Shown here: piece by piece, positions 1-58,021 of the stretch
How the letters are laid out: each line of letters starts with the position of its first letter
Numbering within the stretch: the stretch's first letter is position 1
Sequence record: NC_054928.1
Reading direction: 5' to 3' (one strand)
Origin: Escherichia phage vB_vPM_PD112
DNA length: 64,000 nt
Notes under the pieces: generated by a model
What the model was told of the DNA's origin: nothing
The model's input: only the letters and a program-made list of their open reading frames with translations
Databases searched by the model: none
Made by a program: the position numbers and the translations under genes

Positions 1-44
1 TAAACGCTTTCTTCTTATCTTTATGGACAGAAGCTCTATTAAAA

Positions 45-263
45 TTATGTTTTGCGACTAAATTGTTCATAATGCTGAATTACCTCTCTTAAACATTTGC
101 ATGTGAATGAAAACTTTTTAGCTACACCACATTCAAATATATGTTCTCTTAAATCACGTGTATCAGTATATCCCATCTCAACAATAAAATGCCGTATTAG
201 ATTTTTATCTTTATCATTGAGAGAGTTAAAATAATCGGATTTTGAATTAATTTCCCTGGCCAA
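45..263 (-). CDS. hypothetical small protein (arn-motA interval)
   Basis: Track ORF 72 aa; first codon is TTG, true start may be an internal ATG; position upstream of motA. Confidence 0.35.
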   Translation of the reverse strand: MAREINSKSDYFNSLNDKDKNLIRHFIVEMGYTDTRDLREHIFECGVAKKFSFTCKCLREVIQHYEQFSRKT

Positions 264-543
264 ATTGAATCACCTTCAGTTGACGTTTTAACTCTTTTAT
301 CATTTCTTCGTTCATCGCAATATAAAGATCGCGTAAAGCAGGTTTTAGCATTCCATTTACTGGAGAACTAAATGGACATACATAATCTTTTCCTACGAGC
401 TTTTTAGTGAATTCCATATCGCAGAACTTAAATCCTGGTTCATTGGCATAAATTCCCCAATTAGTTGACATCATTTTATTAGCATATTCCAGTGCCTGGA
501 TTTGATTCATAATTCCATCAATTTGAAACTTTTTAATATTCAT
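247..543 (-). CDS. hypothetical protein, 98 aa
   Basis: Track ORF with ATG start; packed head-to-tail with neighbours. Confidence 0.5.
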   Translation of the reverse strand: MNIKKFQIDGIMNQIQALEYANKMMSTNWGIYANEPGFKFCDMEFTKKLVGKDYVCPFSSPVNGMLKPALRDLYIAMNEEMIKELKRQLKVIQFGQGN

Positions 544-1004
544 TAGTAAAGGTCCTCAGAGTAAAGTTCTTTTTCACTACCACCGCGTTCAATACGTACT
601 TGTCCAGCGTAAGTTGCAATAATCATTGCTTCTTCACGTGTCCAATAATTACTATATTGGTCAATAAACCCTTGATCATCATCACAAACTTGCTGAGTAA
701 CTAATTGAGGTTTAACTACATCTAAAACTTCGGCCATGTCTTTAGAATAATGACGAGCACCCGGAATAATAAGAGTTCGTCCATCTTTTAATTTAAAACG
801 ATTGGCTGCGCAAACAATCCGTCGTTGGTACTTTTGGTTTTCATCCCAGTATGCGGTCTGCCAACAGATTTCAGGAACTTCTTTCAGAATATCTTCTTCT
901 GTACATTTATAACCATGTGCTTTAAATTTTTGAACAAGACTTTCTGGAGTTTCACGAGATAAAGGAACATTCAGCATTTTTAAACGATTAATAAATGGAT
1001 TCAT
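543..1004 (-). CDS. hypothetical protein, 153 aa
   Basis: Track ORF with ATG start; stop overlaps next start. Confidence 0.55.
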
Positions 1005-1330
1005 TTAAACCATCCTTTAATACGTTGCCACAAAGTTTTCTGTTGCGCTTTGTTAACACCAATTGAGCGAATAACTGGTTGAGATTCCTGGAATTCTTTA
1101 TAATCAGCAAGGTAAATTTCGTAAGCTGAATCCGTAAAGGAACTTATAGCTGCCATAAAATTATTGCGAATACCTACTGGAGCATCTTTACTTTCACGAA
1201 TAATCATGTATTTACCAGTCTTAATCTTTACGATAGTTCCAAGATAAGCTCCATGGTACCAGATATCCCACCCCTCTTGAGTGGGTTCTGCACAACGACG
1301 AAGTTCATTGATAATTTCTAACTTGTTCAT
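1001..1330 (-). CDS. hypothetical protein, 109 aa
   Basis: Track ORF with ATG start; ATGA-type overlap with upstream ORF. Confidence 0.55.
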
Positions 1331-1340
1331 TATTTATTCC

Positions 1341-1976
1341 TCACAGTTCAGATGCTACGGTGATTACAGCTTCAATGTTTTCTGCCGAGCGTTTAATGTC
1401 AAGATACACATTACCGTTTTTAGCGATTTTACATGACATTCCGATGTCAGTAAATTTCTGAATATGATGTTCCATCATTTTGTATCCAAAAATTCGCATA
1501 TTTCCATTGTTGTTAATTTCAAAATTACGAATTCCGTGAGTGCGTTTTTCTAAAATAGCGAGATAGTTACTGCGATAAGTTTCAACCTTTTTAAGAACAA
1601 ATCCATTTTCATCTAAAAGTTTTAACATGAAGTCTTTATCTTCTTCCATATCAGAAGTAATCTCGCGAGCTTTACGAGTTGCTCGTTTTTTCAGCAGTTC
1701 CGGAGCATTTTCCTGTGCGTATAAAGTTGCTGCATTTGAAATAATATCCTGAGCTTCACCCGTAATGATTAATCCATCACCAGATTTCTCCACCAGGCCT
1801 TTTTTAATCAATACCCCAATATTACTATTAACTACTGCATTACCTAAATCTGGATGCACCTCACGAACTTCTGCAGCTGTAATGAAATCTTTCTTAGCAA
1901 TGGTAATTAAAATCGCAGCAGTTTTTTCATTCAGAATATCGTTAGAAGCTTTGATGATGTAAGTTACTTTAGACAT
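1341..1976 (-). CDS. motA: MotA, activator of middle transcription
   Basis: 211 aa, the T4 MotA length; N-terminus MSKVTYIIKASNDIL recalled as T4 MotA; own early promoter upstream. Confidence 0.9.
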   Translation of the reverse strand: MSKVTYIIKASNDILNEKTAAILITIAKKDFITAAEVREVHPDLGNAVVNSNIGVLIKKGLVEKSGDGLIITGEAQDIISNAATLYAQENAPELLKKRATRKAREITSDMEEDKDFMLKLLDENGFVLKKVETYRSNYLAILEKRTHGIRNFEINNNGNMRIFGYKMMEHHIQKFTDIGMSCKIAKNGNVYLDIKRSAENIEAVITVASEL

Positions 1977-2010
1977 TTTCTAATCTCCGTAATTCTGTAT
2001 CAGTAGTTGA

Positions 2011-2047
2011 TAGTTGTATAGTACCACAGTATGCTTTGGTTGTAAAC
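2011..2047 (-). promoter_or_regulatory. T4-early-type promoter upstream of motA
   Basis: Minus strand GTTTACA (plus 2041-2047), 17-nt spacer, TACTAT (plus 2018-2023), then SD GGAG and ATG at 1976. Confidence 0.7.
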
Positions 2048-2070
2048 CGTTTTGTGAAAAAATTTTAAAA

Positions 2071-2100
2071 TAAAAAAAGGGAGAGCTTCGGCTCTCCCTA
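2071..2100 (-). terminator. intrinsic terminator (hairpin plus U-run)
   Basis: Minus strand GGGAGAGCCGAAGCUCUCCC followed by UUUUUUUAUUUU, just before the motA promoter. Confidence 0.7.
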
Positions 2101-2103
2101 AAA

Positions 2104-2253
2104 TTACTGCATGACTGTGATAACTGTCATGATAACGCGTTGAATTCCGAACGCAAGAAGACCTCCTGCTACGGCTGGAACAACACCTAAACCCGCCAGT
2201 AAAATGCCGCCAGATACTAACGCCGCGCTTGTAATACCAATGAATGGACTCAT
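2104..2253 (-). CDS. small hydrophobic protein, 49 aa
   Basis: Hand-translated MSPFIGITSAALVSGGILLAGLGVVPAVAGGLLAFGIQRVIMTVITVMQ; ATG overlaps gene 52 stop (ATGA); not in ORF track. Confidence 0.5.
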   Translation of the reverse strand: MSPFIGITSAALVSGGILLAGLGVVPAVAGGLLAFGIQRVIMTVITVMQ

Positions 2254-3578
2254 TTGATTTCCTCTAAATCTTTGGTGTATTCGGTAACTACATCAGTAGT
2301 TTTCCAATATTCGTTTTCTTCTTTTTTAGCTTTAGCTTCTTCAGCAAGTTTCTTCGCTTCATCGGAAGTCATATGAAAAATATTCATTCCAACTAGTTTA
2401 TCAACATAAGAAGAATACATATCGATTTTCGAAAGTTCTTCGGTCAGTTCTTTACGAGTTTTACCTTGTACAACAATTTCACCTGAAATTACTTTCTTAA
2501 TGAAATGTGCCTTGGCAAAGGCTAAACGAAAAGCTGATTCAGTTTCTTTAATTTTGTTATCAATTCGTTTTTGAACATAAGTTTTACGAACTTCAACAAA
2601 GTCTTTAATTAAATCAACTACGTTATCGTAAACTTGCAGCTTTCCTTTCTCATTAATGACTGTAATATTCTGAGAACGACGCTCAATCAATCCAAAGTCT
2701 TTCATAATTTTTGCATGGCGTTCTTCTTCGTTATCGCTCAAAGAATATTCTTTACGGAATTTAACTTTAAAGCCAAAACCATGCTCACCGCAAGCATCAT
2801 CCCATGTAATGAAGCCTTTATCTTCAAGCGGGTCTAAGATTTTACTCACATAAGTTTCACGATCATACTTATACGGAATCTCAGTGATATTCATTTGAGT
2901 TCGTGAAGTAAACTTGTACGTTCCACGAATTTCATATTGACCGTCAATTTCAACGACTTCACCGCGAAATTCTGGGAATTCTACCTTCGGTTTAGTTACT
3001 TTCTTTCCTTGAAGAGCTTGTAGTACAGCTTTCTTGACAGAAGAAACACTATGAGGAAGAATGTAAGTTGCATAACCAGTTGCAATACCGGAAACACCGT
3101 TAAGAAGAACAGTAGGAATAATAGGCAAATAGAAAGCAGGCGGAATGTGTTCTTTATCTTGATGTACCGGAGCATATTCAGTATCTTTATATACGCTATA
3201 GAAATTTTTACTTACACGAGCAAAAATATAACGACTTGCTGCTGCTTTTTGAACGGTACGAGAACCAAAGTTTCCTTGACCATCTAACAAAGGAAAGTTA
3301 TTATTCCAAGTGTTAGCCATCAAAGCCCCCGCATCTTGTGCGGAGTTTTCACCATGATGATATCCAAGGTCAGCTACACCACCTGCAATAGAAGCGAGTT
3401 TGTGAAACTTATCTTTATTTCCTCGCGCCAAATCAAGAGCTCGAGCAATAACAAATCGTTGAACTGGCTTAAATCCATCAATCATATTTGGAATAGCACG
3501 ATTTTCAACCGTGTACATAGCATAAGCCAGTGCTTCATTATCAATGATACTTTTTAAATCGCGATTATTCAGTTGCAT
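2250..3578 (-). CDS. 52: DNA topoisomerase II medium subunit (GyrA-like)
   Basis: 442 aa, the T4 gp52 length; GyrA-like N-terminal region; ATG start. Confidence 0.95.
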   Translation of the reverse strand: MQLNNRDLKSIIDNEALAYAMYTVENRAIPNMIDGFKPVQRFVIARALDLARGNKDKFHKLASIAGGVADLGYHHGENSAQDAGALMANTWNNNFPLLDGQGNFGSRTVQKAAASRYIFARVSKNFYSVYKDTEYAPVHQDKEHIPPAFYLPIIPTVLLNGVSGIATGYATYILPHSVSSVKKAVLQALQGKKVTKPKVEFPEFRGEVVEIDGQYEIRGTYKFTSRTQMNITEIPYKYDRETYVSKILDPLEDKGFITWDDACGEHGFGFKVKFRKEYSLSDNEEERHAKIMKDFGLIERRSQNITVINEKGKLQVYDNVVDLIKDFVEVRKTYVQKRIDNKIKETESAFRLAFAKAHFIKKVISGEIVVQGKTRKELTEELSKIDMYSSYVDKLVGMNIFHMTSDEAKKLAEEAKAKKEENEYWKTTDVVTEYTKDLEEIK

Positions 3579-3582
3579 AAAT

Positions 3583-3723
3583 TTACCATACTAGTGAATG
3601 TAGTGCCATAATAACATCAGAAATGAAAAGCACGACTTGAATTAATCCGAACATTACTCCATAATATAGTGCTACCAGTAAAGCAGCAAGGGCTACTGAG
3701 TAGCCCAAGATTTTCTTAATCAT
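3583..3723 (-). CDS. small hydrophobic protein, 46 aa
   Basis: Hand-translated MIKKILGYSVALAALLVALYYGVMFGLIQVVLFISDVIMALHSLVW; ATG overlaps the ac stop; not in ORF track. Confidence 0.45.
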   Translation of the reverse strand: MIKKILGYSVALAALLVALYYGVMFGLIQVVLFISDVIMALHSLVW

Positions 3724-3871
3724 TAGATAACAACGCAAATGTTAAACATGCACACATACCCTGAGCTAAAGCTTGCGAAAACACGCTGCTGACATCAATA
3801 CAGATAGTTAAAACACATGCTACTATCCAACAAATAAATGAAATAACTCCTAATAATTTTGCAATATTCAT
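3716..3871 (-). CDS. ac: small membrane protein, probably Ac (acriflavine sensitivity)
   Basis: 51 aa hydrophobic ORF MNIAKLLGVISFICWIVACVL; size and position between 52 and stp fit T4 ac as I recall it. Confidence 0.5.
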   Translation of the reverse strand: MNIAKLLGVISFICWIVACVLTICIDVSSVFSQALAQGMCACLTFALLSND

Positions 3872-3878
3872 ATTTTCC

Positions 3879-3959
3879 TCACTGGCGTCCGAAGACGCCT
3901 TTAGTTTTAAGATTGTTACGATAGAACTGCATTACGTGTTCGTTATGGAAATTACTCAT
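3879..3959 (-). CDS. stp: Stp peptide (suppressor of three-prime phosphatase)
   Basis: 26-aa [29 protein letters not shown], recalled as T4 Stp; SD GAGGA; hairpin immediately downstream. Confidence 0.75.
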
Positions 3960-4414
3960 TAATATGCCTGCAAAACAAATTTAAAGTTATCAGCCAACAT
4001 ACGGTTCATTTCTTCAAGTGTTTGATACTCAGAATGATGATTACGAGTAAACGCCAAAGCTAACTGACCTTTTCCAAATCCTGTCGTCAAAGGTTTCATC
4101 TTAGAAGCAGGTAGATAAAATACCGTGTATGGAACATTGTTATTTGCAATAGTACGCGCAAGCTGAGACCGACGCTGACGAATATGACTTAGAACTGCAC
4201 TGAATCCTTGCTTAGAACGCTGATTACCTACATAAAATCGTGCAGATACACACGGACTATCAAATGGACCACCAAATTTGCTCACTAAAAAGTAAAATCC
4301 AGGGTTAGACAAAATGTCTTTATGCGGAGTTCCAAAAACCCATTCACCACCCTTGATTGTACCAATAACAGTAGCGCCTGCATTATTCAGATCAGTAACA
4401 GTCATGTATTTCAT
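3959..4414 (-). CDS. ndd: Ndd nucleoid disruption protein
   Basis: 151 aa, the T4 Ndd length; position downstream of denB and upstream of stp. Confidence 0.85.
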
Positions 4415-4473
4415 ATTAATTTCCTCTAATTATTTTCTACTCCAAGGCCGCATGAATACACACGGCCATTAAA

Positions 4474-4689
4474 TTAATCGTCGCAGTCGACGCTCAATTC
4501 CCAAAACTCTTCTACAGTATAAGTTTCAGTATCATTTTCAATACAGAAACGTTCATTACTGTTATTTGCTAAAGTAGCGTTAACTGTCGGTTTCTCGCTA
4601 GTGCTCTTAAGAGGTGAAATACGAATTAACTGATCACCACTATCTAAACAGAAAATTTCACCAACTTTTACATCTTTAAAAATTTTCAT
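4474..4689 (-). CDS. hypothetical protein, 71 aa
   Basis: Track ORF, ATG start. Confidence 0.5.
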   Translation of the reverse strand: MKIFKDVKVGEIFCLDSGDQLIRISPLKSTSEKPTVNATLANNSNERFCIENDTETYTVEEFWELSVDCDD

Positions 4690-4804
4690 AATTCACCTCA
4701 GGGAGTATAAAATCCGAATGCAGTTGTTGACCATCCCATCCAATATGGGAAATTTGCGCCAATGTAAAACATGAGAATATAAAACCAACCGCTCAGCAAA
4801 TTCA

Positions 4805-5002
4805 TCATTTTACGCCATTCCAAATTGTTTCAACCACGGATTTTAAACCATTTTGATGAATATCAATTCCGACTACTGTCATCAAATAGATTCCAACTAC
4901 AACTGAACCTAAGGCAAAAATCAGCATGAAAATGAATAAAGCCGGAAAAATATTATCGAAAAACCATTCAATAAATGTAAAAGCACTGCGTTTACGCTTC
5001 AT
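4805..5002 (-). CDS. small membrane protein, 65 aa
   Basis: Track ORF starts on TTG; first ATG with SD GAGGAAAAT gives MKRKRSAF..., one hydrophobic span. Confidence 0.5.
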   Translation of the reverse strand: MKRKRSAFTFIEWFFDNIFPALFIFMLIFALGSVVVGIYLMTVVGIDIHQNGLKSVVETIWNGVK

Positions 5003-5009
5003 ATTTTCC

Positions 5010-5123
5010 TCACATAAATCCAAAGTAAGCGTTTAATACATCAATCATTAAAACGATTGGGAATATACTCAAAACTATTAGTATTATAACTACATTCCAT
5101 ATAGCTTTAACAATCTTTTTCAT
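5010..5123 (-). CDS. small membrane peptide, 37 aa
   Basis: Hand-translated MKKIVKAIWNVVIILIVLSIFPIVLMIDVLNAYFGFM; SD GGAGGA; early promoter upstream; not in track. Confidence 0.35.
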   Translation of the reverse strand: MKKIVKAIWNVVIILIVLSIFPIVLMIDVLNAYFGFM

Positions 5124-5287
5124 TTTCTGTTCCTCCGTAGTTGATAGGGTAATAGTACCACGGAAGAACAGTCTTGTAAACAACTTTTTTTAAAAATATT
5201 CGTAATAAATGTGAATACCAACTACTACCGCTGAAACCTGTGCAACCCACCACGCACAAGCAATAAGTACAGAATTCAAAATTTTCA
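5117..5287 (-). CDS. small membrane protein, 56 aa, 3-prime end overlapping a promoter
   Basis: Hand-translated MKILNSVLIACAWWVAQVSAVVVGIHIYYEYFKK...; hydrophobic N-terminus; reading frame runs through promoter 5152-5180. Confidence 0.3.
5152..5180 (-). promoter_or_regulatory. T4-early-type promoter
   Basis: Minus strand TTTACA (plus 5175-5180), 17 nt, TACTAT (plus 5152-5157); followed by conserved leader and SD GGAGGA. Confidence 0.65.
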
Positions 5288-5370
5288 TAATAACCTCATC
5301 ACAAAAGTAAATGTTAAACAAATTACTGGAATACTAATTAACCAAACAAAACACCACCACCACAGTGAAC

Positions 5371-5634
5371 TCATAGTTCAATCTCAACGATTTCCAGGTG
5401 TTTTTGTTTTATTGCCTTTTTAACACAATCATGGACTAAATATGACCATGAATCATTATATTCTCCATTAACTAATCGTTGGAGATCTTCACGTGATGAT
5501 AAGTAAGGTTGATCTGATTCCCATTTTGATAAAAATACTGCAGTAAAAATATCTCCTTCACCTGTAGTTGAAGTCGTAAATGCAATAAATTCACCGGTAA
5601 TTTTATGTTTAGCGTAATAAAATTTAAATTTCAT
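5371..5634 (-). CDS. hypothetical protein, 87 aa
   Basis: Track ORF trimmed to the ATG that lies downstream of promoter 5662-5690 and has SD GGAGGA. Confidence 0.5.
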   Translation of the reverse strand: MKFKFYYAKHKITGEFIAFTTSTTGEGDIFTAVFLSKWESDQPYLSSREDLQRLVNGEYNDSWSYLVHDCVKKAIKQKHLEIVEIEL

Positions 5635-5661
5635 TTTTACTCCTCCGTAGCTGATAGTTGT

Positions 5662-5690
5662 ATAGTACCACAGTCCTTGTGGTATGTAAA
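5662..5690 (-). promoter_or_regulatory. T4-early-type promoter
   Basis: Minus strand TTTACA (plus 5685-5690), 17 nt, TACTAT (plus 5662-5667); spacer has dyad CCACA..TGTGG. Confidence 0.7.
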
Positions 5691-5708
5691 CTGTTTTGTG
5701 AAATTTTT

Positions 5709-6266
5709 TTAAATGGAAAGATACCATCCGTTGTAGTTGCTTTTTCTTACAACCTTACGAAGGTCTTCTCTGTCACCGATGAACTTCGGAGTGTACTGGA
5801 TGACACCTGGATGAATTTCTTTAGTGTTGAATATAATTATACAGTCAGCGACTTGGTGATTTAGAATGGGCCCTAGATTTATTCCAGAACCATATGGATA
5901 CTCTCCGCTGCATCCGGTTGTTACCGAAATCCAACGTGAGTCAGTTTGATGTGTCTTAACTTCTACACGAAGCCCACAGTATTTTGGATGCGCCAATACA
6001 TCCCATGCATATGTGTACGGATCATCGACATCTTCTTGACCTTTGTTAACATACCCGCTCAGCCAATCTGCTACAAAAAATTCTGCGTACACAGCGATAC
6101 GGCATCTTTCGATAACTTCTGCCTTATCTTGATTTGGGTTTTGTTTTAAAGAGTATCTTGCTGTATCAGCAATTTTGGCCTTCATTTCACTAGTCAAGTC
6201 ACTGTTCGATAGGGTAAATGTCGGAATCTGAAACAGTCTCTGTAACCCAGGATTCGTTTTCTGCAT
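5709..6266 (-). CDS. denB: DenB, endonuclease IV
   Basis: 185 aa, the T4 DenB length; position between ndd cluster and rIIB. Confidence 0.7.
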   Translation of the reverse strand: MQKTNPGLQRLFQIPTFTLSNSDLTSEMKAKIADTARYSLKQNPNQDKAEVIERCRIAVYAEFFVADWLSGYVNKGQEDVDDPYTYAWDVLAHPKYCGLRVEVKTHQTDSRWISVTTGCSGEYPYGSGINLGPILNHQVADCIIIFNTKEIHPGVIQYTPKFIGDREDLRKVVRKSNYNGWYLSI

Positions 6267-6528
6267 TTAGACTTTCCTTTTTACCACTGAGATAAGCGTT
6301 ATATACTTTAAGAGTGCCGTAATAAATTCGGTCATTTTCATCTAAAGACTCGCGGTCAAGTTCATCGAGCTCCTTTTTATCCATGACTATAACATCATTA
6401 CAGTAAAGAAACCCAAGTTTTTCGTGACCAAACTCAAATTTATTACAGTACACAATATTAGCGTGATGATTTCCGTGCAGTTTAATCTCTTTTATGTCGG
6501 AATCACCGATATTCATACAATAAATCAT
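6199..6528 (-). CDS. hypothetical protein, 109 aa
   Basis: Track ORF, ATG start, SD AAGGAAAA; 3-prime end overlaps denB start by 68 nt. Confidence 0.45.
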   Translation of the reverse strand: MIYCMNIGDSDIKEIKLHGNHHANIVYCNKFEFGHEKLGFLYCNDVIVMDKKELDELDRESLDENDRIYYGTLKVYNAYLSGKKESLNAENESWVTETVSDSDIYPIEQ

Positions 6529-6540
6529 AATTTTTCCTTA

Positions 6541-6560
6541 AAACAAAAGGGCCGAAGCCC
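6541..6560 (-). other. intercistronic hairpin with UUCG loop
   Basis: Minus strand GGGCUUCGGCCC followed by UUUUGUUUU, between ORF 6567-6761 and ORF 6199-6528. Confidence 0.6.
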
Positions 6561-6566
6561 TTTATT

Positions 6567-6761
6567 TTACTTGAATTGTGCAATTCTTTTCTCTAGACAT
6601 TCAGCATAAGATTTCATTGAGATAAACTGCGAAAGTAGCAGTTCTTGCTCAACTGCGCTAACTGTTAGAAACTTTGCGCTTTCTAAAAATTTGCTCAGTG
6701 CATTAATTTTGAGCATTAATTGATCGTATTCTTCTTTTACTCGTGCTTGATAACCTAACAT
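6567..6761 (-). CDS. hypothetical protein, 64 aa
   Basis: Track ORF, ATG start, directly downstream of rIIB. Confidence 0.5.
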   Translation of the reverse strand: MLGYQARVKEEYDQLMLKINALSKFLESAKFLTVSAVEQELLLSQFISMKSYAECLEKRIAQFK

Positions 6762-6793
6762 AATTTTCCTTAATGTAATAAGGGCCGAAGCCT

Positions 6794-7732
6794 TTATTTG
6801 AATTGTTCAGTAACGTCTTCAACTACTTCGTATTGGCAGGTACGCATTTTAGCATCGTTGTAATCAATCGGAATTGATACTACATCACGCGGATGTACTT
6901 TAACTTTTACAACTCGGCTGGTTGAACTGCCAAAGTGACGAATATAAGATTTAGAACACACATGCAGACCATGAGAACAAGTTTGTGTATCATCGTCATT
7001 CACACGAGTACGTGGCATTTTAACTACTTTACCCGGACTGTTATCAAAGGTGTTTGAGTGACAGTCAAAGTAATTGCTACGAACTACTTTCCAAGCATAG
7101 AAGTAACCATCTTCTGTAATTTCAATATCGTTTGCTACCAAGAAATCAAAGAGTCGAGATACCGCTTTTTGGCTTGGGTTTTCCAACAGATTTTCCAGGA
7201 ACGGAAAATAAAATTCAAAGTTTTCGCCTTTTTCCATCGAATCGAGAATACGATCAACTAAACCAGACCGCAATTCAATGTTTTGATAGAACAAGCTTCC
7301 ACCTTCAATTCGAACATCGCCGGAAATATATTTTTCAACAGCGCGACGAACATTAATTTTTTGTGCCGCTTCTTCCAACTTATCCGCTACAAGCAGATTA
7401 AGAATTTCCTGGAAGTTTGAATGAGTATTAGGAGTTGCGTTATAAGTTACACCGTCAACAGTAATTGAAATGAATTTTTTAGATGCATTCCAAATAATGT
7501 CAGATTTAGCAACTGGAGCAATAGCTACATCGCTCTTAACTTCAACTGTAATGTCACCGCTAATGGTAACTTTAGAGCGTTCAGCTTCTTCAGCATTTTT
7601 CAAAACACGACGGATTGTGTCAACCGATACACCTTGCCAATCAGCCAATTCCTGTTGGGTATAATTACCGCTTGAATACAGTTTGACAATTTCAGCTTGT
7701 TCGTTTTTGGTCAGGCATTTAATATTGTACAT
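6794..7732 (-). CDS. rIIB: rIIB protein
   Basis: 312 aa, the T4 rIIB length; immediately downstream of rIIA. Confidence 0.95.
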   Translation of the reverse strand: MYNIKCLTKNEQAEIVKLYSSGNYTQQELADWQGVSVDTIRRVLKNAEEAERSKVTISGDITVEVKSDVAIAPVAKSDIIWNASKKFISITVDGVTYNATPNTHSNFQEILNLLVADKLEEAAQKINVRRAVEKYISGDVRIEGGSLFYQNIELRSGLVDRILDSMEKGENFEFYFPFLENLLENPSQKAVSRLFDFLVANDIEITEDGYFYAWKVVRSNYFDCHSNTFDNSPGKVVKMPRTRVNDDDTQTCSHGLHVCSKSYIRHFGSSTSRVVKVKVHPRDVVSIPIDYNDAKMRTCQYEVVEDVTEQFK

Positions 7733-9931: not shown

Positions 9932-10135
9932 TTAATTCATATTGCGTTTAATAACTTCAACAACTTCTAGTAGTTCATCTTTAGTTGCGGTGTCGGATTG
10001 AATTTTATCTCTAATATCCTTAAAGCGGTTTTTAAACTCTTCAGCTTCTCCCATATCGAAAAAGCGTTGAATGATTCTATATTCTCGATGAACTGCTTTA
10101 TCAAAAAGTTCTAAATTTACTTTGTATGATTTCAT
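9932..10135 (-). CDS. rIIA.1: hypothetical protein, 67 aa
   Basis: Track ORF between gene 60 and rIIA; own early promoter at 10161-10190. Confidence 0.6.
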
Positions 10136-10160
10136 TTCAATATCCTCATTTGCTCAATTA

Positions 10161-10190
10161 ATTATACCACATCCTTGTGGTAAAGTAAAC
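10161..10190 (-). promoter_or_regulatory. T4-early-type promoter
   Basis: Minus strand GTTTACT (plus 10184-10190), 17 nt, TATAAT (plus 10161-10166); -35 abuts the gene 60 stop codon. Confidence 0.75.
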
Positions 10191-10722
10191 TACTGGCTCA
10201 TCCATTCTTTACGAAGGTCAGCATTATCTCCCATGAGCATTTCAAAAAGCTCTTTCCAATTCTCAGGAAGTTTAACAACATCATATACTGGGTTTTGAAT
10301 CATCTCACGATATTCAGATTTTTCCAAAGAGCCAAGTCCCTTAATATAACGGATGCTATGTTTAGGTAGAGCATCTTTGGCACTCTCATATTCAGCGACT
10401 GTATAAAACCATTCTTGTTTTTTGCCGACCTGAGCGATGATTACAGGAGTTTTGACAAAGCGAATTCTTCCTTGTTCAAACAGTTCTGGCCAATTACTAA
10501 AAAATCCGAGCAGAGAAGGATAAATAGAACCTAATCCAATAATCTCTTAATTATGAGGTATTTCTATAGATAGCCCGAAGGCTATCCATCGTGATCTGCG
10601 TCTGTCATAATAGCGACATTCGCATAGTTCATTGAAGAGGATTTAATAGAACGACGAACATTGTTCTGCAATTTATATTTTTTCATATCAACGCTAGAAG
10701 AATCAATTTTTACAAATTTCAT
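10190..10722 (-). CDS. 60: DNA topoisomerase II subunit gp60, made by 50-nt translational bypass
   Basis: Codons 1-46 at 10722-10585 (MKFVKIDSS...TDADHDG), then UAG; decoding resumes at UUA 10534 (LGSIYPSLLGFFSNWPELFEQGRIRF...MSQ) to stop 10190-10192; 160 aa total as in T4. Confidence 0.95.
10535..10584 (-). other. gene 60 coding gap (ribosome bypass element)
   Basis: Take-off GGA 10585-10587, stop UAG 10582-10584, take-off hairpin UAGCCUUCGGGCUA, landing GGA 10535-10537. Confidence 0.9.
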
Positions 10723-11521
10723 TATACACCTCATAGAACTTTTCATCAGGAATCCAACCGCGTTTAAATTCATTAAATGCTCGGCCGAATAATTTTGAAT
10801 TCACAGTTATATTATTAACTGATTTCCATTTAGCAACTCCTGTTCGTTTATAATGATCGGGGTCATATTTCGTGACGTACCATTCATATAAATTTGGTAT
10901 TAATTTTACAGCCTCTGGATTTGTCGCTGATTTATTATACCATGGTTTCGCTTTTTCAAGTTCAGCTGCTTTTGCAGTAGCAGCAACAGTATTTCCAATA
11001 CCAACTAATTTTTCAGCTTTAATGCGTGGATCATTAACATGAAGACGAAAAACTTCGCCCTTTTCATTTTTAAAGCATGTCATGCCTTTAATTCCAGGAA
11101 GCTTAACACCTTTATTAACACCACACCATTCCTTTGGGTTAAATGATCCTTTAATTAATAAGGCGCATTTACCCGATTTAATACTTCTCATTAAAACTTT
11201 ATCTTTCATAAAGTTTTTTGACCATTCAGATACTGCTCTTTGATGGTAAATTCTAGCAATTTCATATAATTTACTAGAACGTAAATATTTTTCAGTGTTT
11301 AACATTCTATTCATCGCATATGCCATTTCACGATTACGATGAATTTTATATAGTAGAAAATGTGCTAAAAAGTGTTCACGAAAAGTCAGTTTCACCAAAT
11401 TTTCTTTATCATCAGAACCTCCCATTGATCTTGGAAGGATATGATGAATTTCACCCTTAAATTTAGAAACGCGGGTTTTACCCCGCACTATTAAGTCATT
11501 ATAGATTTTTTCGTAATTCAC
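10703..11521 (-). CDS. mobA: MobA, HNH-family homing endonuclease
   Basis: 272 aa ORF with HNH motif EIHHILPRS...N...H near the N-terminus; no ATG before the motif (track start is GTG) and no clear SD. Confidence 0.8.
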   Translation of the reverse strand: MNYEKIYNDLIVRGKTRVSKFKGEIHHILPRSMGGSDDKENLVKLTFREHFLAHFLLYKIHRNREMAYAMNRMLNTEKYLRSSKLYEIARIYHQRAVSEWSKNFMKDKVLMRSIKSGKCALLIKGSFNPKEWCGVNKGVKLPGIKGMTCFKNEKGEVFRLHVNDPRIKAEKLVGIGNTVAATAKAAELEKAKPWYNKSATNPEAVKLIPNLYEWYVTKYDPDHYKRTGVAKWKSVNNITVNSKLFGRAFNEFKRGWIPDEKFYEVYNEICKN

Positions 11522-13049
11522 CTACTGTTATCCATTTACCATTAATCTGTACTTCATCATTTTCATTTACGATAATTGTATCGCCATTTAGTTCGAAAGT
11601 AAACCACTCGCCATCTTCTTTTTCTTCAAACGCCTTTTCACCAAGAACTAATCCAGTGATTGCGCAAATATCAAATAGTTCTTTGTTTTTAAGCATATCG
11701 GCATATGACATACCCCAGCTATTAAGAACTTTACCGCGCAATGGATAACCACCATGAAGTTCTTTATCACGAACATCAATAAGATATCCAATAGCAGAAT
11801 CACCCTCAGTCAAGAAAAGAGTAGTATCAGCATCTTTACCACAAAGATTCGCTTTGATATGTTTATGAACCTTAGCTTTAGAAGCCTTTTTAGCTGCTTT
11901 AGTTTCTGCTGCTTTTTCTGCCGCCAATTTACGAGCCAAAGCAGCTTCGATAATCGGCATTAGAATTGCTTCATTATTTAGAATAGCGCGTGAAATCTTT
12001 TTAGCATCAAGCTGAATATGACTACGAATTTCACCAAAAGGAGAAGTAAGTCGTTCTTTAGTTTGAGAATCAAATCGCATGTTTTTCATATCACGGACAA
12101 ACATAACGATAGTCAAACATTCTTTGACACGTGCTTTAGTTACATCAATTTTGAATTTACGTTTGATTTGTGGAATAAGGTCTTCACAAATATCATCCAT
12201 AACACAATCAATGTGATGGCCACCATTCTTAGTATGAATGTTATTCACATAAGTTAATTGACGAAAACCATCCGGTGAACGACCAACAGCAATAGAACAA
12301 TTTTCTTGTTCTTGAACGATAGCATGTTCATCATACTGTCGTGCATATTTCTTAAAATTACCCTGAACCTTTTTACCATTAAAGGTAAATTGAATATCAG
12401 GATAAACTACTGCAAGTGTCTGGAGACGATCCAGTGTAATGTCAAGATAAACTTGAGATAGCTCATTAGTTTCAAATGACATAAAATCAGGAATGAAAGT
12501 AACGCGAGTTCCTTTCCATTTTCCAGGAATAGTTTCCCAGGATTTATTTTCCATGCCATTTGAACAACGAACTACAATATTATTTTGACCATCGCCGGTT
12601 TCACCGACAAACATCACAGAAAAAATATTAGTTAAACTAGAACCAACACCATTCATACCACCAGTGACGCGTTCTTTATCATCACCGAAGTTACCACCTG
12701 CTTTTGGAATAGTCCATGCAGCAACTGGACCAGGAATTTCTTCACCGGTAGGTGTTTTAACCATCGCCTGTGGAATACCGCGACCGTTATCTTCAACTGT
12801 TACTTGATTGTTTTTAATAGTAACATTAATTTTATTTGCGAATTTAAACTTAGTACGAATACCTTCATCTACTGAGTTATCGATAATTTCATCAATAAGC
12901 TTAACAAGACCAGGTACATACTGAACACTTTCCCATTTACCAAACAGAAAGCGCTCATGCATTTCATTAGCTGAAGAGCCAATGTACATGCCGCTACGCT
13001 TTTTGATATGTTCAATATCGCTCAGAATTTTAATTTCATTCTTAATCAT
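11499..13049 (-). CDS. 39: DNA topoisomerase II large subunit (GyrB-like ATPase)
   Basis: 516 aa from the ATG after SD GAGGA (track adds an upstream GTG); GHKL and TOPRIM motifs. Confidence 0.95.
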   Translation of the reverse strand: MIKNEIKILSDIEHIKKRSGMYIGSSANEMHERFLFGKWESVQYVPGLVKLIDEIIDNSVDEGIRTKFKFANKINVTIKNNQVTVEDNGRGIPQAMVKTPTGEEIPGPVAAWTIPKAGGNFGDDKERVTGGMNGVGSSLTNIFSVMFVGETGDGQNNIVVRCSNGMENKSWETIPGKWKGTRVTFIPDFMSFETNELSQVYLDITLDRLQTLAVVYPDIQFTFNGKKVQGNFKKYARQYDEHAIVQEQENCSIAVGRSPDGFRQLTYVNNIHTKNGGHHIDCVMDDICEDLIPQIKRKFKIDVTKARVKECLTIVMFVRDMKNMRFDSQTKERLTSPFGEIRSHIQLDAKKISRAILNNEAILMPIIEAALARKLAAEKAAETKAAKKASKAKVHKHIKANLCGKDADTTLFLTEGDSAIGYLIDVRDKELHGGYPLRGKVLNSWGMSYADMLKNKELFDICAITGLVLGEKAFEEKEDGEWFTFELNGDTIIVNENDEVQINGKWITVGELRKNL

Positions 13050-13076
13050 CACTTATCCTCGTTTGGTTTCGGGAAT

Positions 13077-13100
13077 ATTATACTCCAATAATCATAAAGC
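13077..13100 (-). promoter_or_regulatory. MotA-dependent middle promoter upstream of gene 39
   Basis: Minus strand MotA box GCTTTA (plus 13095-13100), 12 nt, TATAAT (plus 13077-13082). Confidence 0.65.
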
Positions 13101-13101
13101 T

Positions 13102-13120
13102 AAAGGCCCGAAGGCCTTTT
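13102..13120 (-). other. hairpin with UUCG loop over the stop codon of ORF 13119-13379
   Basis: Minus strand AAAGGCCUUCGGGCCUUU; sits directly upstream of the gene 39 middle promoter. Confidence 0.6.
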
Positions 13121-13379
13121 ATTTAAAACGAATAGTCGAATCCTTGAAGAATAGTCCAGAACATACTGTTCCTTCTACTTTCTGCCCGGTAGGTCCAATA
13201 GCACGAAATCCAGTATGTTGGAAATCATTTTCAGAGCAACCGAACCAATTATATCCAGTGATTTCAATATTAGTAAAACCACTTGAAGACAAAACTTTGG
13301 TTGCATTATCAGCATCAGTACATCCTACTAAAGATACTGCTAATACTAATGCTGCAATAGAACGATTAATATATTTCAT
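13119..13379 (-). CDS. small lipoprotein, 86 aa
   Basis: Signal peptide with lipobox LVGC (MKYINRSIAALVLAVSLVGCTD); ATG start. Confidence 0.6.
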   Translation of the reverse strand: MKYINRSIAALVLAVSLVGCTDADNATKVLSSSGFTNIEITGYNWFGCSENDFQHTGFRAIGPTGQKVEGTVCSGLFFKDSTIRFK

Positions 13380-13560: not shown

Positions 13561-13974
13561 TTATTCCTTAAAGTGAGCTTTCAACATCTGATACAAGGAC
13601 CATGCTTGTTCATTATTTTCAATAGTAACTTTCATTACCGGGAATTCAGATGGTTCAGTTACTGGTGCAGGGTCTTCCTGCTCTTCAGCTGCCTGGTATG
13701 GATTTTCAACTTCATCAAAGAATTCAGCTTCATTCGATGAAAGCCAAATAAAATCTTCATCCAAAATATCTTTACCGGAGGATAATGCCAATCTTCCAGT
13801 AGATGTCACAATTTTAGTAGGACGACCAAGATAGTCAATATCTATAACTTTAAAAGGTTCCATACCTAAACGTCGTGCATAAATTCCGTTTTCAGTATGA
13901 TATTTAATAAATTTTTCTTGAGCTTGTTTATTTTTAAATTGATACCATTTATTAACTTCAAATTTAATAGCCAT
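13561..13974 (-). CDS. hypothetical protein, about 137 aa (possibly goF by position)
   Basis: Track ORF starts on TTG; first ATG overlaps upstream stop (TAATG); name from T4 gene order only. Confidence 0.45.
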
Positions 13975-14360: not shown

Positions 14361-14858
14361 TTATGCGCAGCGAGCGTTGCTGTAGTGTTTAATCCAACTT
14401 TCAGGAATGACTTTGTATGTTCCTAAAAATACCGCGTTGTATAGCTTAACGCCATCTTCTACCCACTGATCGGTAATGTATGCACACATAGCACGAGTAC
14501 GATGTTTTTGAACAACCCCTTCCTCATCTTCAGTAAATTCGAATTCATAAGGAGCAACGAACTTAATAGCCTGACCGAGTTTCCACTTAAAGTCTACACC
14601 TACATGCGAAGTATCAATCGTTTCAATTCCTTTAGCGGGAACAGCTTTCAAAAACGCAGACTCAAGAAATTTCGCACGAACATAGCCAAACTGAGGTTTA
14701 GACTTTCCATCTTTAGGAATGATACGCACTTTTACTTCAGAATCTTCATCTTTAACGCCATGTTTAAGCTGAATGCTTACAATTTCGACCAATTTTCCTG
14801 CTGCTTTAGAACGGGATTTATCAGATACACGAGCAATTTCACCAATATTAATAATCAT
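14361..14858 (-). CDS. motB: MotB-like protein
   Basis: 165 aa; position between cef-like ORF and dexA cluster; shares a C-terminal motif with the next ORF. Confidence 0.55.
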   Translation of the reverse strand: MIINIGEIARVSDKSRSKAAGKLVEIVSIQLKHGVKDEDSEVKVRIIPKDGKSKPQFGYVRAKFLESAFLKAVPAKGIETIDTSHVGVDFKWKLGQAIKFVAPYEFEFTEDEEGVVQKHRTRAMCAYITDQWVEDGVKLYNAVFLGTYKVIPESWIKHYSNARCA

Positions 14859-23115: not shown

Positions 23116-23141
23116 TGAAAAAAGGACTCCCGAAGGAGTCC
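23116..23141 (-). terminator. intrinsic terminator downstream of soc
   Basis: Minus strand GGACUCCUUCGGGAGUCC followed by UUUUUUCAUUUU. Confidence 0.7.
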
Positions 23142-23149: not shown

Positions 23150-23386
23150 TTAACCACCTATTGTTGTAGGCGTAAACATTGCAGCATTCTTAGTTTTCCA
23201 AGTTGCTGCATCGGAAACTACATCAGAATAAGCTGCTTTTTCTGACGGAAAGATTTGATAATGAGAATCTGCAATACGGTGTTCATTTGAATATACATCA
23301 AATGCTACAGAAACTTCCATACCTTTAACTTCTTTGCCTTCACCCGCTGGATGAGTAAAGGTCTTGATGTTAACGAAACCACCCAT
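23150..23386 (-). CDS. soc: Soc small outer capsid protein
   Basis: 78 aa; motifs FVNIKTF, VSVAF, HYQIFPSEKAAYS resemble T4 Soc as I recall it. Confidence 0.75.
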   Translation of the reverse strand: MGGFVNIKTFTHPAGEGKEVKGMEVSVAFDVYSNEHRIADSHYQIFPSEKAAYSDVVSDAATWKTKNAAMFTPTTIGG

Positions 23387-23425
23387 AATAAACTCCTTTA
23401 TTGTTTAATTACAAGTGTATTTATA

Positions 23426-23599
23426 TCAATCTTCAATGAAAACTTGTGCCAGGAATTCATGCTCATCTTGAATTTGTTTATATAAAGCCATTACAGCATT
23501 TATGTTAGAGCTATCTACTTTAAGTTGATAAGCATACCACTCATGTAAATTAATTAAAGCTTTTTGACGTCTAATAAATTCTTCTTTGGATATTTTCAT
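23426..23599 (-). CDS. small protein, 57 aa
   Basis: Hand-translated MKISKEEFIRRQKALINLHEWYAYQLKV...; ATGA overlap with upstream ORF. Confidence 0.4.
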   Translation of the reverse strand: MKISKEEFIRRQKALINLHEWYAYQLKVDSSNINAVMALYKQIQDEHEFLAQVFIED

Positions 23600-23796
23600 T
23601 TTGAATGCTCTATAATTAATTTTAAGGCTTCTTCACTTACAAAAATTTCGTCAGGGCTTTCTTCTGCAACCCAATCAACCGCACGAAGCTGATTAGATAA
23701 GAGCTCGTATGTGAGCTCCTTGTCATAATTTTTAAATAGCTGGTCAATACGTTTCTTGTGGGCTTTCTTAAGTTGACGTTTATTTAAACGAGCCAT
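23596..23796 (-). CDS. hypothetical protein, 66 aa
   Basis: Track ORF, ATG start. Confidence 0.5.
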   Translation of the reverse strand: MARLNKRQLKKAHKKRIDQLFKNYDKELTYELLSNQLRAVDWVAEESPDEIFVSEEALKLIIEHSK

Positions 23797-31137: not shown

Positions 31138-31803
31138 TTATAATAGTGTTCTTGTTCCACGAAATACTTCGAGCATTCTTGCATAAGATTTATTTGGAAA
31201 TCCAGCCTCAATTGCTAATTTTTTAAGCTTAATAGCACCGGGTTTTCCAGAGTTTTCCCATATTTCTTTAATCTTTTCAATGTTACCCCACATTATTGGG
31301 TCACGTTTATGTGATGGTTTATTTCTATTATAACCATATGGATTATTAAGCAAAGCTTCTTTTCGTCTTGCTTTAGTTTCTTCTGACTGCTTTTTGCCTA
31401 GCTGGACTTTCCGGCAAACATCACTAAATCCAAGATGTTTTGGTTTTCCTTTTTGAGCTTTCGAAATTTTTTCTTTAGTTTCTGATGAAACTCTATAACC
31501 AATTCTTCTACCACCCTCTCCGCCAATTTTTAAATTATAGGTCATAGGATCATTTACAACATCTATTGTTACTAATTCTCTTTCAGCATCCCGGGCTGAT
31601 TTAAAATCTTTATAAAACCCAAGAATGCTTAAATTAAAATTTTTCTTACCATACTTTTTCTTGGCTTGTGCTAATAAAGTTCCTGACCCCAGATAACCAT
31701 CATTTAAGTCATCGGTTGAATGAGTTCCGTAGTAAATTTTATTATTAACTAAATTAGTTATAACATAAGTATAATTATATTTCTTTTCTTTGTGTCTTTT
31801 CAT
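31138..31803 (-). CDS. segA: SegA, GIY-YIG homing endonuclease
   Basis: 221 aa from first ATG; GIY-YIG motif YVITN...KIYYGTHS and NUMOD-like repeats; position after uvsX as in T4. Confidence 0.9.
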   Translation of the reverse strand: MKRHKEKKYNYTYVITNLVNNKIYYGTHSTDDLNDGYLGSGTLLAQAKKKYGKKNFNLSILGFYKDFKSARDAERELVTIDVVNDPMTYNLKIGGEGGRRIGYRVSSETKEKISKAQKGKPKHLGFSDVCRKVQLGKKQSEETKARRKEALLNNPYGYNRNKPSHKRDPIMWGNIEKIKEIWENSGKPGAIKLKKLAIEAGFPNKSYARMLEVFRGTRTLL

Positions 31804-31807
31804 GTCA

Positions 31808-32650
31808 TTAATCAACTGCTATTGGATGAATAGCATTAAACTTATGAAACGCTTCTGATTTTTCTTTGCGCGAAACACACATGCGAAGAACCTTTAATGG
31901 CTCGTCTTCTTCACCCAACGATTTTCGTTTTTCAATATTAGAAGTTTTCCAACGAGCTTGCTCTGGAAATTCTCTATTGATTTGCTCGAGAGCTCTATTA
32001 TGTTTTGAATTACTACGAATTGAACTACATCCGCCAGGAGCTTGTGCTTTTCCGGATACAACCAGATATTTGAACAAGGCCAAATGCGGATAACCTTGAT
32101 TAATTAAATTGAGAAATGCATACATATCTTCGCATAAATCAATTTTTCCATACCCAATTTGTTCTGTTGTAAGTTTTCCAAGGTCATACCATGTATTCGT
32201 GAATCCATATGAATTTTCACGATAATTACCCCAAGATGAAGTAATTTTAAAAATAGGTAGACGAGCATGGCCATGATAATACCCGCAATCCATGGCATCT
32301 TCAACGTATTGAATCAATTCATAGAACTGTTCACGAGTTAATTGATTAATTTTATCTACGCAGCGACGATCATCTTTCTTTCGCATTGAACTCATACGAA
32401 TAGTAGTATCATCATCGATCATCCAAATTCGTTGACCTGCATACATATCAGTAATTGCTTTACGAGTTCCAGCAATTCCATTAACATCATCAGGAATAGT
32501 TACAATTTTAGCTCTAGACCCGTAAGCGTCATAATAAGCTTTTTCTTCATGTTCACGTACTACAATATGAGGTTCATAATCAGTCGGAAACATATCAAGG
32601 GCAGAAACTGCCCCTACACGTTGATAGCTTGGAATTACGAATTGAATCAT
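31808..32650 (-). CDS. GT-A fold (family 2-like) glycosyltransferase in the T4 beta-gt slot
   Basis: 280 aa; FVIPSYQR N-terminus and DxD-like WMIDDDTT; too short for T4 beta-gt (351 aa). Confidence 0.7.
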   Translation of the reverse strand: MIQFVIPSYQRVGAVSALDMFPTDYEPHIVVREHEEKAYYDAYGSRAKIVTIPDDVNGIAGTRKAITDMYAGQRIWMIDDDTTIRMSSMRKKDDRRCVDKINQLTREQFYELIQYVEDAMDCGYYHGHARLPIFKITSSWGNYRENSYGFTNTWYDLGKLTTEQIGYGKIDLCEDMYAFLNLINQGYPHLALFKYLVVSGKAQAPGGCSSIRSNSKHNRALEQINREFPEQARWKTSNIEKRKSLGEEDEPLKVLRMCVSRKEKSEAFHKFNAIHPIAVD

Positions 32651-33387
32651 TTCCACTCACCGTTATAATCTTTTTTCGCAATATGAGTTTCACCAGTTTT
32701 CCACCAATGGTCAACTAAATAAAACTGATTTTCGTAAACATGAAGACTTCCAACGTTCCATATAATAGAACCTGCTTTATATTGCCGCGATGGGTCGCCT
32801 GCATTCAAATCAGATACTAATTTATCTAGTACGTATTTTTGCCATGCATAATCATTACGATAGCCTGCCCAGCAATCATTGCTTCTCATGTTAACAACCG
32901 CATTGATTTTCTTGTCACGAATCAGGTACTGTACTGTATTCGTACACATGAAATCTGACATGCCATCTTTATTGTAGTCAAACTGCATGGATGGACGAGT
33001 ATAAATCATGATACCACGTCGAGAATCAGGATTTTGACCAAGTTCAGCTAAACACATGTCATACTGAGCATAGTTATCTTCTGACCAGATAGCCCAACCA
33101 TAATTCGAGTTAATTTCACCTTTAGAAGATGCTACCTGCTGCCAAATCTTTGGTGTTTCACCTGGAATATCTTTAACAAACAGACTTTGAGACTTATACC
33201 ATTCAAGTTCACGCTGAATGTATTCATCATTAAGAGCGCCAAAAATAAACGGTTCATCTGCTACAAATGATGCGCCAATAATTTCAATAGTTTTAACGCC
33301 AGTTTTATCAACTACGAAATCTTTTTCCTTTAATGCAAGCCCCAAATGAAGACGGATTTCTTCAACTGTCATAGAGTCACTAATCAT
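32647..33387 (-). CDS. 42: dCMP hydroxymethylase
   Basis: 246 aa, the T4 gp42 length; thymidylate-synthase-like fold; N-terminus MISDSMTVEEIRLHL. Confidence 0.95.
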   Translation of the reverse strand: MISDSMTVEEIRLHLGLALKEKDFVVDKTGVKTIEIIGASFVADEPFIFGALNDEYIQRELEWYKSQSLFVKDIPGETPKIWQQVASSKGEINSNYGWAIWSEDNYAQYDMCLAELGQNPDSRRGIMIYTRPSMQFDYNKDGMSDFMCTNTVQYLIRDKKINAVVNMRSNDCWAGYRNDYAWQKYVLDKLVSDLNAGDPSRQYKAGSIIWNVGSLHVYENQFYLVDHWWKTGETHIAKKDYNGEWK

Positions 33388-43792: not shown

Positions 43793-44995
43793 TTATTTTG
43801 TAATAATGTCAAACTGCTCTTTAAAGCAGAAGCTTGAATCTTGGTGCTGATACAAAAATTCATAAGCTTTTTCGCGTTCACGGTCATAAAGAGCTCGGTC
43901 AGATGACAGTTCTTTAATACGTTCAAATGTTGATTCCATGTCATTTTCATCAAACCAAACGATACCGCTATCGTGCGAAATTAATGGAGTATTATCAACA
44001 CGGAATTTTAAATTTTCGCCAGTAGATTTCCAAAATACTGGAATTGTTCCACATGCACCAAGCTCGAGATGAGTATATTCTAAAGAACGCTGTAGATATT
44101 TTTTATCTAATTTACTCAGCTGATAACCAAATCCGGATTTACTCATGCGTTCAAGCATTTCGCTATTTACATAACGGTCGAGAATTTGCGTCGGCAAATT
44201 AGGAGCAATTTTAATTTGGTCTACTTGATGAAGACGATAATACTCGTATGGAATTCCTTTTTCTTTAATAGGAATGAAAGCTGGAGAACGTTCCAGACCT
44301 TCCATAATAGTACTTAGTCCTGCAGGTTTAAGATGTTTTTCGTGAAAATCAAACATCTGATAAAAGCCTTTCCATGTAGTAGTACGACCAATCCAACGGT
44401 TGATATTCATGTTAATTTCAGAAACATCTTTCCAGTAGGTTGATCGAACCTTCGCAATATCCATAGGAGGCTGAAAGTTATATACGGTCGGTGCTTCTTC
44501 AATATCATCAAACAGAGAAACAGTTTCCGGATACCATTCTTTCATCAAAACTTTATTAAAGTCACCATTATCAGAATGGCTAAAAATAACATCAGCTCGA
44601 CGAACAGTTTCTTCTAATCCCAAATTTCGGCGTAAAGAAAGAGAAGAATGGTCATGCTGATAAACTACAACACGAACCGAAGGTTTAATGTTATCAATAA
44701 TTTTTTTATAGTTATTAATAGTGTCTTCTTCTACTGAAGTAGCAGGAACTGAATTGATAATTAGAATATCACAATCATTTACCAACTTAAGTGTTTTATC
44801 GTATTCTTTTGCCAATAAAACCGGAATTGAAAATGACTTATAATCATGCGCGCAATTACGAGTAAATGATTTATCTTTAGCATAAACCAAAGTTACTTCA
44901 TGACCATTTTTAATAAACCAATCACGCTGCTCAAGAGAAAATTTAGTTACACCGCAACCTTCAAGACCTCGAGCCATAAAAATACATGCTTTCAT
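43793..44995 (-). CDS. agt: alpha-glucosyltransferase
   Basis: 400 aa, the T4 alpha-gt length; N-terminus ...CIFMARGLEGCGVTKF. Confidence 0.9.
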   Translation of the reverse strand: MKACIFMARGLEGCGVTKFSLEQRDWFIKNGHEVTLVYAKDKSFTRNCAHDYKSFSIPVLLAKEYDKTLKLVNDCDILIINSVPATSVEEDTINNYKKIIDNIKPSVRVVVYQHDHSSLSLRRNLGLEETVRRADVIFSHSDNGDFNKVLMKEWYPETVSLFDDIEEAPTVYNFQPPMDIAKVRSTYWKDVSEINMNINRWIGRTTTWKGFYQMFDFHEKHLKPAGLSTIMEGLERSPAFIPIKEKGIPYEYYRLHQVDQIKIAPNLPTQILDRYVNSEMLERMSKSGFGYQLSKLDKKYLQRSLEYTHLELGACGTIPVFWKSTGENLKFRVDNTPLISHDSGIVWFDENDMESTFERIKELSSDRALYDREREKAYEFLYQHQDSSFCFKEQFDIITK

Positions 44996-45019
44996 TTAAT
45001 ATCCTCATTGTTTTGGTTT

Positions 45020-56044: not shown

Positions 56045-56072
56045 ATTAATCTCCTCAGTAGAAAGTAAGAAC

Positions 56073-57115: not shown

Positions 57116-57123
57116 GGTGTTCC

Positions 57124-58014: not shown

Positions 58015-58021
58015 ATTTTCC

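Follow-up and report, generated by a model that had tools for sequence, protein, structure and literature searches.

Layout of gene 60 and its coding gap

Gene 60 lies on the minus strand of the window, the 64,000-nt stretch of the Escherichia phage vB_vPM_PD112 genome (NC_054928.1) that was analyzed. It starts at an ATG at 10722, upstream of which a Shine-Dalgarno sequence (GAGGTG) is found at 10732-10727. The phage type II topoisomerase is composed of gp39, gp52, and gp60, the product of this gene. The locus comprises the following features:

11499-13049, minus strand: gene 39, N-terminal part of the topoisomerase II large subunit (ATPase and start of the Toprim domain; Pfam DNA_gyraseB and HATPase_c)
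10526-11631, minus strand: MobA mobile cassette, 1106 nt
10703-11521, minus strand: mobA, intact gene for a 272-aa HNH-type homing endonuclease; shares bases, out of frame, with the 3′ end of gene 39 and the 5′ end of gene 60
10585-10722, minus strand: gene 60 segment 1, codons 1-46, the last of which is the take-off GGA; 100% identical to T4
10636-10683, minus strand: gene 60 codons 14-29 (KYKLQNNVRRSIKSSS), which hold Y16, Q19, V22, R24, S25, K27, and S28
10597-10624, minus strand: predicted stem-loop (GCGAAUGUCGCUAUUAUGACAGACGC...) upstream of the take-off hairpin
10566-10589, minus strand: take-off stem-loop of 10 bp with a UUCG tetraloop; its 5′ arm contains the take-off GGA and the UAG
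10585-10587, minus strand: take-off codon GGA (Gly46)
10535-10584, minus strand: untranslated coding gap of 50 nt, with UAG at its start and the landing GGA at its end
10544-10546, minus strand: GAG, a small Shine-Dalgarno-like triplet 6 nt 5′ of the landing codon; its role in landing is taken from the literature
10535-10537, minus strand: landing codon GGA
10190-10534, minus strand: gene 60 segment 2, codons 47-160 and a TAG at 10192-10190; encodes what remains of the Toprim domain plus the C-terminal region

Codons 1-46 translate to MKFVKIDSSSVDMKKYKLQNNVRRSIKSSSMNYANVAIMTDADHDG, and the take-off GGA is directly followed by a UAG at 10584-10582. The stretch from this UAG on (10584-10571, minus strand) reads UAGCCUUCGGGCUA. 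The two GGA codons are separated by 47 nt, and the gap of 50 nt shifts the reading frame; its 3′ part (gap bases 15-47) is 79% A+U. Reading restarts at UUA (10534-10532) and continues for 114 codons, which gives a product of 46 + 114 = 160 aa. The frame of segment 2 opens after a TAA within the gap (10549-10547) and contains no ATG, GTG, or TTG before a TTG at 10327, 69 codons past the landing site. Because of this TAA and the missing start codon, the mechanical list of open reading frames holds only a 63-aa ORF (10582-10773, opened by an in-frame ATG farther upstream) followed by a 45-aa ORF (10190-10327) at gene 60.

The initial annotation had placed a ribosome hop here on the basis of a frame that stops at UAG after codon 46 (GGA), a matching GGA 47 nt downstream, a downstream frame that lacks its own start codon and yet encodes the rest of a 160-aa topoisomerase subunit, and an ORF track with a 63-aa fragment followed by a blank. 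All of this is borne out by the positions given above. The interval that it reported, 10532-10587, has the resume codon and the take-off codon as its exact limits, with the minus strand and the MobA cassette going unmentioned.

Identity to T4 gene 60 and predicted RNA structure of the proposed bypass site

The bypass in T4 gene 60 has been known since the late 1980s. Over a 1.5-kb query from around the site, the window shares 100% identity with phage vB_EcoM_CE1 and 99.3% with several T4 isolates. An alignment to T4 gene 60, which the initial annotation had proposed as a check, shows no difference from T4 AF158101 in codons 1-46, in the 50-nt gap, or in the 51 nt that come next. Five differences follow in segment 2, the first of them 52 nt downstream of the landing codon, and all five are synonymous. 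The same 50 nt are labelled “non-coding translational bypass region” in AF158101 and are also annotated as a bypass in T4T and HY01. The claim that this is the classic 50-nt hop of T4 is therefore upheld by the complete identity of segment 1 and gap to T4 and by the colinearity with gp39 of phage RB5 described below. The T4 gene 60 bypass belongs to clade 1 of the MobA bypass cassettes (bioRxiv 10.1101/2022.08.31.505936), and its first 46 codons, gap, 160-aa product, position in the Toprim domain, and linkage to mobA are the same here.

At the protein level, joining the segments gives a chain of 160 aa that shares 100% identity with T4 gp60 (PDB chain 8yo3_C) and matches Pfam TOPRIM_C. The 8yo3 chain stems from a codon-optimized, fused construct, and the match proves only that the conceptual product equals annotated T4 gp60. 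Segment 1, with its 46 aa, has the same sequence as in T4 and as the nascent chain 5np6_C, which was determined by cryo-EM in a ribosome stalled at the take-off site. Residues of the nascent peptide (Y16, Q19, V22, R24, Y33, M39, and T40) are present. In the literature, Y16, Q19, V22, R24, S25, K27, and S28 of gp60 have been implicated in bypassing through contacts with the ribosomal exit tunnel.

The gap is widely shared among phages. A 136-nt stretch over the gap is 100% identical in at least 27 phage records and at least 99% identical in at least 33, among the matches listed. A 161-nt query across the gap matches 501 phage records, 54 of which cover at least 80% of the query and thus include the gap; of the remaining records, those sampled down the ranking match only from the landing region onward.

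The hairpin that the initial annotation had placed at the take-off site is a 10-bp stem-loop with a UUCG tetraloop (10589-10566). As an isolated 30-nt hairpin it folds with -14.7 kcal/mol (z = -4.23), and none of 200 shuffles is as stable. The significance holds only for the isolated hairpin, as the fold of the whole 76-nt region is unexceptional (z = -1.45). An alternative role of the UUCG hairpin as an intrinsic terminator was rejected, since a terminator scan of 10000-13200 gave no terminator-like sites. Promoter-like matches in the same interval are fewer than in shuffles and uninformative.

A further stem-loop is predicted upstream of the take-off hairpin (10624-10597) in both the minimum-energy and the centroid folds, with a sequence equal to that of T4. 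It falls in the region of the published T4 5′ stem-loop and may be the same helix. In the 65 nt past the landing site (10534-10470) no stable structure is predicted (z = +1.84), and the reported forward slippage barrier is therefore not recovered by simple thermodynamic folding. The region of the 5′ stem-loop and the 51 nt after landing are identical in sequence to T4, and therefore whatever works in T4 is also present here.

Covariation of the take-off stem was assessed in six distinct cassettes: that of the window and T4, and those of HY01, the Proteus phages, Salmonella phage S16, Shewanella phage Thanatos-1, and Acinetobacter phage fHyAci03. All 60 cells of the 10-bp stem (60/60) are paired across these cassettes from five host genera, compared to just 18-43% of cells in slid controls. 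Compensatory changes on both sides occur in four of the ten pairs, in what is a small set of six sequences. The pair that contains the third base of the take-off codon is of the AU, GC, or UA type among the six. This small covariation set agrees with the larger published analysis by Manning & Atkins (bioRxiv 10.1101/2022.08.31.505936).

The tip of the hairpin, CCTTCGGG with its UUCG tetraloop, is present in four copies in the window (0.23 expected), always on the transcribed strand:

10574-10581, minus strand: copy in the take-off hairpin
13107-13114, minus strand: copy just upstream of gene 39
23129-23136, minus strand: further copy
61028-61035, minus strand: further copy

This UUCG hairpin-tip motif is known to recur in T4 hairpins (bioRxiv 10.1101/2022.08.31.505936), and the copies in the window are in agreement with this.

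The homologous cassettes of the Proteus phages (Bragavirus), Salmonella S16 (Gelderlandvirus), Shewanella Thanatos-1, and Acinetobacter fHyAci03 share the insertion point in the topoisomerase gene with the window. In each of them, too, UAG follows the take-off codon and the hairpin tip reads CC-UUCG-GG (or UUAG). The 3′ part is rich in A+U, a purine-rich triplet precedes the landing codon, and a gene for a homing endonuclease lies upstream. Their gaps are about 72-81% identical to that of the window, and the hairpin is kept via compensatory changes. They differ in the take-off/landing codons, which are GGG/GGA (Proteus), GGU/GGC (S16), GGU/GGU (Thanatos-1), and GAU/GAC (fHyAci03) in contrast to GGA/GGA here. 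In fHyAci03 (MH460829), the split homolog of the topoisomerase gene at 2414-2936 has the same UAGCCUUCGGGCUA hairpin; its take-off codon GAU (Asp) lies one codon earlier than in T4, and the depositors annotated a probable translational bypass. This split gene is covered by Manning & Atkins (bioRxiv 10.1101/2022.08.31.505936).

A more distant parallel are the “byp” elements in the mitochondria of the yeast Magnusiomyces capitatus, which are untranslated inserts of 27-55 nt in coding sequences that are bypassed by the ribosome and resemble mobile elements. Compared from the literature alone, the byp elements and the gene 60 gap are both short, bypassed, mobile-element-like inserts. Unlike gene 60, the byp elements have an unrelated sequence, occur in many copies per genome, and were followed at take-off by a sense codon lacking its tRNA instead of a stop codon.

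The MobA cassette and the unsplit topoisomerase gene

The coding gap is part of a larger insertion. The match to phage IME537, the closest cassette-free backbone, breaks off after 10525 and resumes at 11632; in between, IME537 has 64 nt, compared to 1106 nt in the window. In the direction of the genes, the cassette begins with the gene 39 extension and mobA, continues with the N-terminal extension of gene 60, and closes with the 50-nt gap plus 9 further nt. The last ~43 codons of gene 39 are accordingly a C-terminal extension contributed by the cassette. In the ORF list, gene 39 starts from a GTG at 13052, and the ATG at 13049 fits the 1551-nt CDS that is annotated in T4 and CE1. The cassette size, the 64-nt deletion, and the 9 nt beyond the gap fit the clade 1 MobA element described by Manning & Atkins (bioRxiv 10.1101/2022.08.31.505936). 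The published element is about 1.1 kb in size, splits the gene, replaces 55-75 nt, and carries the bypass gap at its 3′ end. The replacement of 64 nt by 1106 nt thus independently reproduces the published description. According to the literature, the site targeted by MobA is disrupted by the gap, which in this way shields the carrier genome against its own nuclease.

The MobA protein of the window differs from the MobA annotated in T4T by one amino acid. Its match to the Pfam HNH family is weak (E = 7e-4) and lies under the curated cut-off. In the T4 reference AF158101, the mobA stretch has 11 extra single bases and is annotated as a pseudogene plus “gene 60.1”; mobA is intact in T4T.

Without the cassette, the protein is encoded in one piece. 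The unsplit large subunit of the T-even topoisomerase II (gp39 of T2, T6, RB5, and IME537) is the same protein as gp39 and gp60 segment 2 of the window taken together. It is encoded by a single 605-aa ORF without mobA, split, or gap, with 64 nt at the place of the 1106-nt cassette. Residues 2-474 of gp39 from the window are 99.8% identical to residues 1-473 of RB5 gp39 (605 aa). Residues 472-491 of RB5 gp39 match segment 1 (E = 6e-9), and residues 492-605 match segment 2 with 100% identity (E = 4e-81). The junction DADHDG|LGSIY is gapless compared to RB5 gp39 and sits at the conserved D-G of the Toprim DxDxDG motif. The RB5 DNA reads GAC CAT GAT GGT TTA GGA at this point, without the 50 nt. 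Alignments with T6 gp39 (8ylu_C), eukaryotic topoisomerase II, gyrase B, and ParE all run across the junction.

Compared to T4, the phage has the five synonymous substitutions in segment 2, an intact mobA, and a mosaic Tequatrovirus backbone that is closest to IME537 and CE1. The cassette forms an island of 98-100% identity to T4, and its flanks share ~93-97% identity with T4 and 97-100% with IME537. The MobA cassette looks like a recent acquisition by homing into an IME537-like backbone, because the sequence presents a T4-like island in such a backbone whose relative IME537 has the unsplit gene. A more far-reaching version, in which the phage is a natural recombinant whose IME537-like backbone recently gained a T4-type cassette with an intact endonuclease and in which the five synonymous changes, located in host-derived sequence past the landing site, could alter the slippage barrier and hence the bypass efficiency, is rather doubtful.

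Differences from T4 are found elsewhere in the window as well; the comparison with T4 covers the part between the window ends 1-7732 and 56042-64000. Just beyond gene 39 and further along, the intervals 13600-13799 and 14400-14599 are 73% and 86% identical to T4 and 98.5-100% identical to IME537. Their low identity to T4 is ordinary T-even mosaicism. Several homing-endonuclease elements of T4 are missing, namely segF (replaced by two small ORFs), mobB, mobC, and the nrdD group I intron together with its endonuclease. The sites that lack these T4 elements are:

23332-23795: site without the T4 element
44986-45011: site without the T4 element
49817-50064: site without the T4 element
51319-51322: site without the T4 element

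The nrdD gene is an uninterrupted 605-aa ORF (50040-51857). The region between nrdD and gene 49 holds an ORF of 273 aa (51848-52669, minus strand) that contains a NUMOD3 motif and has no T4 counterpart; its annotation is that of a homing endonuclease (SegG in one record), and it is matched by 48 other phage records. The place of the T4 beta-glucosyltransferase is taken by an unrelated 282-aa ORF (31808-32656, minus strand) that matches Pfam TAGT (TET-associated glycosyltransferase, E = 2e-9) and is adjoined by a segA-like gene for a GIY-YIG endonuclease (31138-31815).

Proposed translational bypass and alternative explanations

The locus is almost certainly the programmed translational bypass of T4 gene 60 in a T4-like Tequatrovirus. 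The bypass signals described for T4, namely the matched GGA codons, the UAG, the UUCG hairpin, the residues of the nascent peptide, the GAG, and the A+U-rich 3′ part of the gap, are present in the window at the level of sequence. In T4, according to the literature, the hop has been shown experimentally; the mRNA keeps the 50 nt, and the ribosomes bypass the gap. Judging from the T4 experiments, roughly half of the ribosomes would be expected to hop in this phage.

The mechanism, which is established for T4 with its identical sequence, would start here with initiation at the ATG at 10722 (minus strand) and the translation of 46 codons. The ribosome would then stall with peptidyl-tRNA-Gly on the GGA in the P site and the UAG in the A site. 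Subsequently, the tRNA anticodon would release the mRNA while the tRNA stays within the ribosome, which would slide across the 50 nt, with refolding of the upstream mRNA aiding the movement. Pairing of the GAG with 16S rRNA would aid landing, and reading on from there would yield one 160-aa protein, gp60. The gap itself is the 3′ end of the 1106-nt MobA homing-endonuclease cassette, whose insertion divided what had been one gene 39.

Alternatively, two separate polypeptides could be made, with segment 1 ending at the UAG and segment 2 being initiated inside or just after the gap. The GAG 6 nt before the landing GGA and the AUU codons at 10543-10538 could be imagined as a weak initiation region, and the automatic annotation of vB_EcoM_CE1 (ON229909), the database record closest to the window, gives gene 60 as two separate short CDSs (2379-2519 and 2774-2911). 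However, the 69 codons past the landing site offer no ATG, GTG, or TTG. The second CDS of CE1 starts at the TTG that corresponds to 10327 of the window and leaves 69 codons unannotated; it would delete 69 Toprim residues, all of which (100%) are conserved in RB5. Two chains parted at DADHDG|LGSIY would also split a Toprim motif that is continuous in all homologs, and mass spectrometry in T4 found that the sole bypass product derives from landing at this GGA. Separate initiation is thus highly improbable.

Equally little speaks for removal of the gap from the RNA (by an intron or processing), for a sequencing or assembly error, or for an inactivating insertion in a pseudogene, a group of explanations that is very hard to credit. 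T4-type phages carry self-splicing group I introns in other genes, and the insertion disrupts the reading frame. However, an Rfam scan of the whole 64-kb window gave no match at the gathering threshold, which means that the element has no curated RNA family and that no intron is recognized. A self-splicing intron would also have to be much longer than 50 nt; the conserved catalytic core of group I or II introns measures several hundred nt. RNA removal is also at odds with the literature, in which ribosomes bypass the gap on the mRNA. An error is contradicted by the identical sequence (100%) in at least 27 independently sequenced phage genomes. A pseudogene is contradicted by purifying selection on the flanking coding sequence, with all five differences to T4 being synonymous, and by the compensatory changes in the hairpin across genera.

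Conventional recoding by stop-codon readthrough or a single +1/-1 frameshift without a long hop deserves next to no weight: the stop at the site, the downstream frame change of +2 (equivalent to -1), and the nearby hairpin superficially recall frameshift sites, but neither event can explain expression because all three gap frames hold stops (UAG at codons 1 and 7 in frame 0, codon 11 in frame 1, and codon 12 in frame 2, numbered from the base after the take-off GGA), and a translated gap would add residues that are absent from the colinear unsplit homolog.

The programmed bypass at this locus is already known in full detail, and there is nothing new in the element itself. This instance adds no new biology, and it illustrates that the element can be recognized by a reader of the sequence alone. 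Its practical value lies in annotation: the CE1 record splits gene 60 and omits 69 codons, and automatic pipelines therefore still mishandle the element. If the doubtful effect on the slippage barrier and bypass efficiency were real, the phage would offer a natural test of that barrier and of MobA homing in progress. More generally, bypassing in gene 60 is the classic case of a ribosome skipping a long stretch of mRNA, and it serves as a model for how the nascent peptide and mRNA structure reprogram translation.
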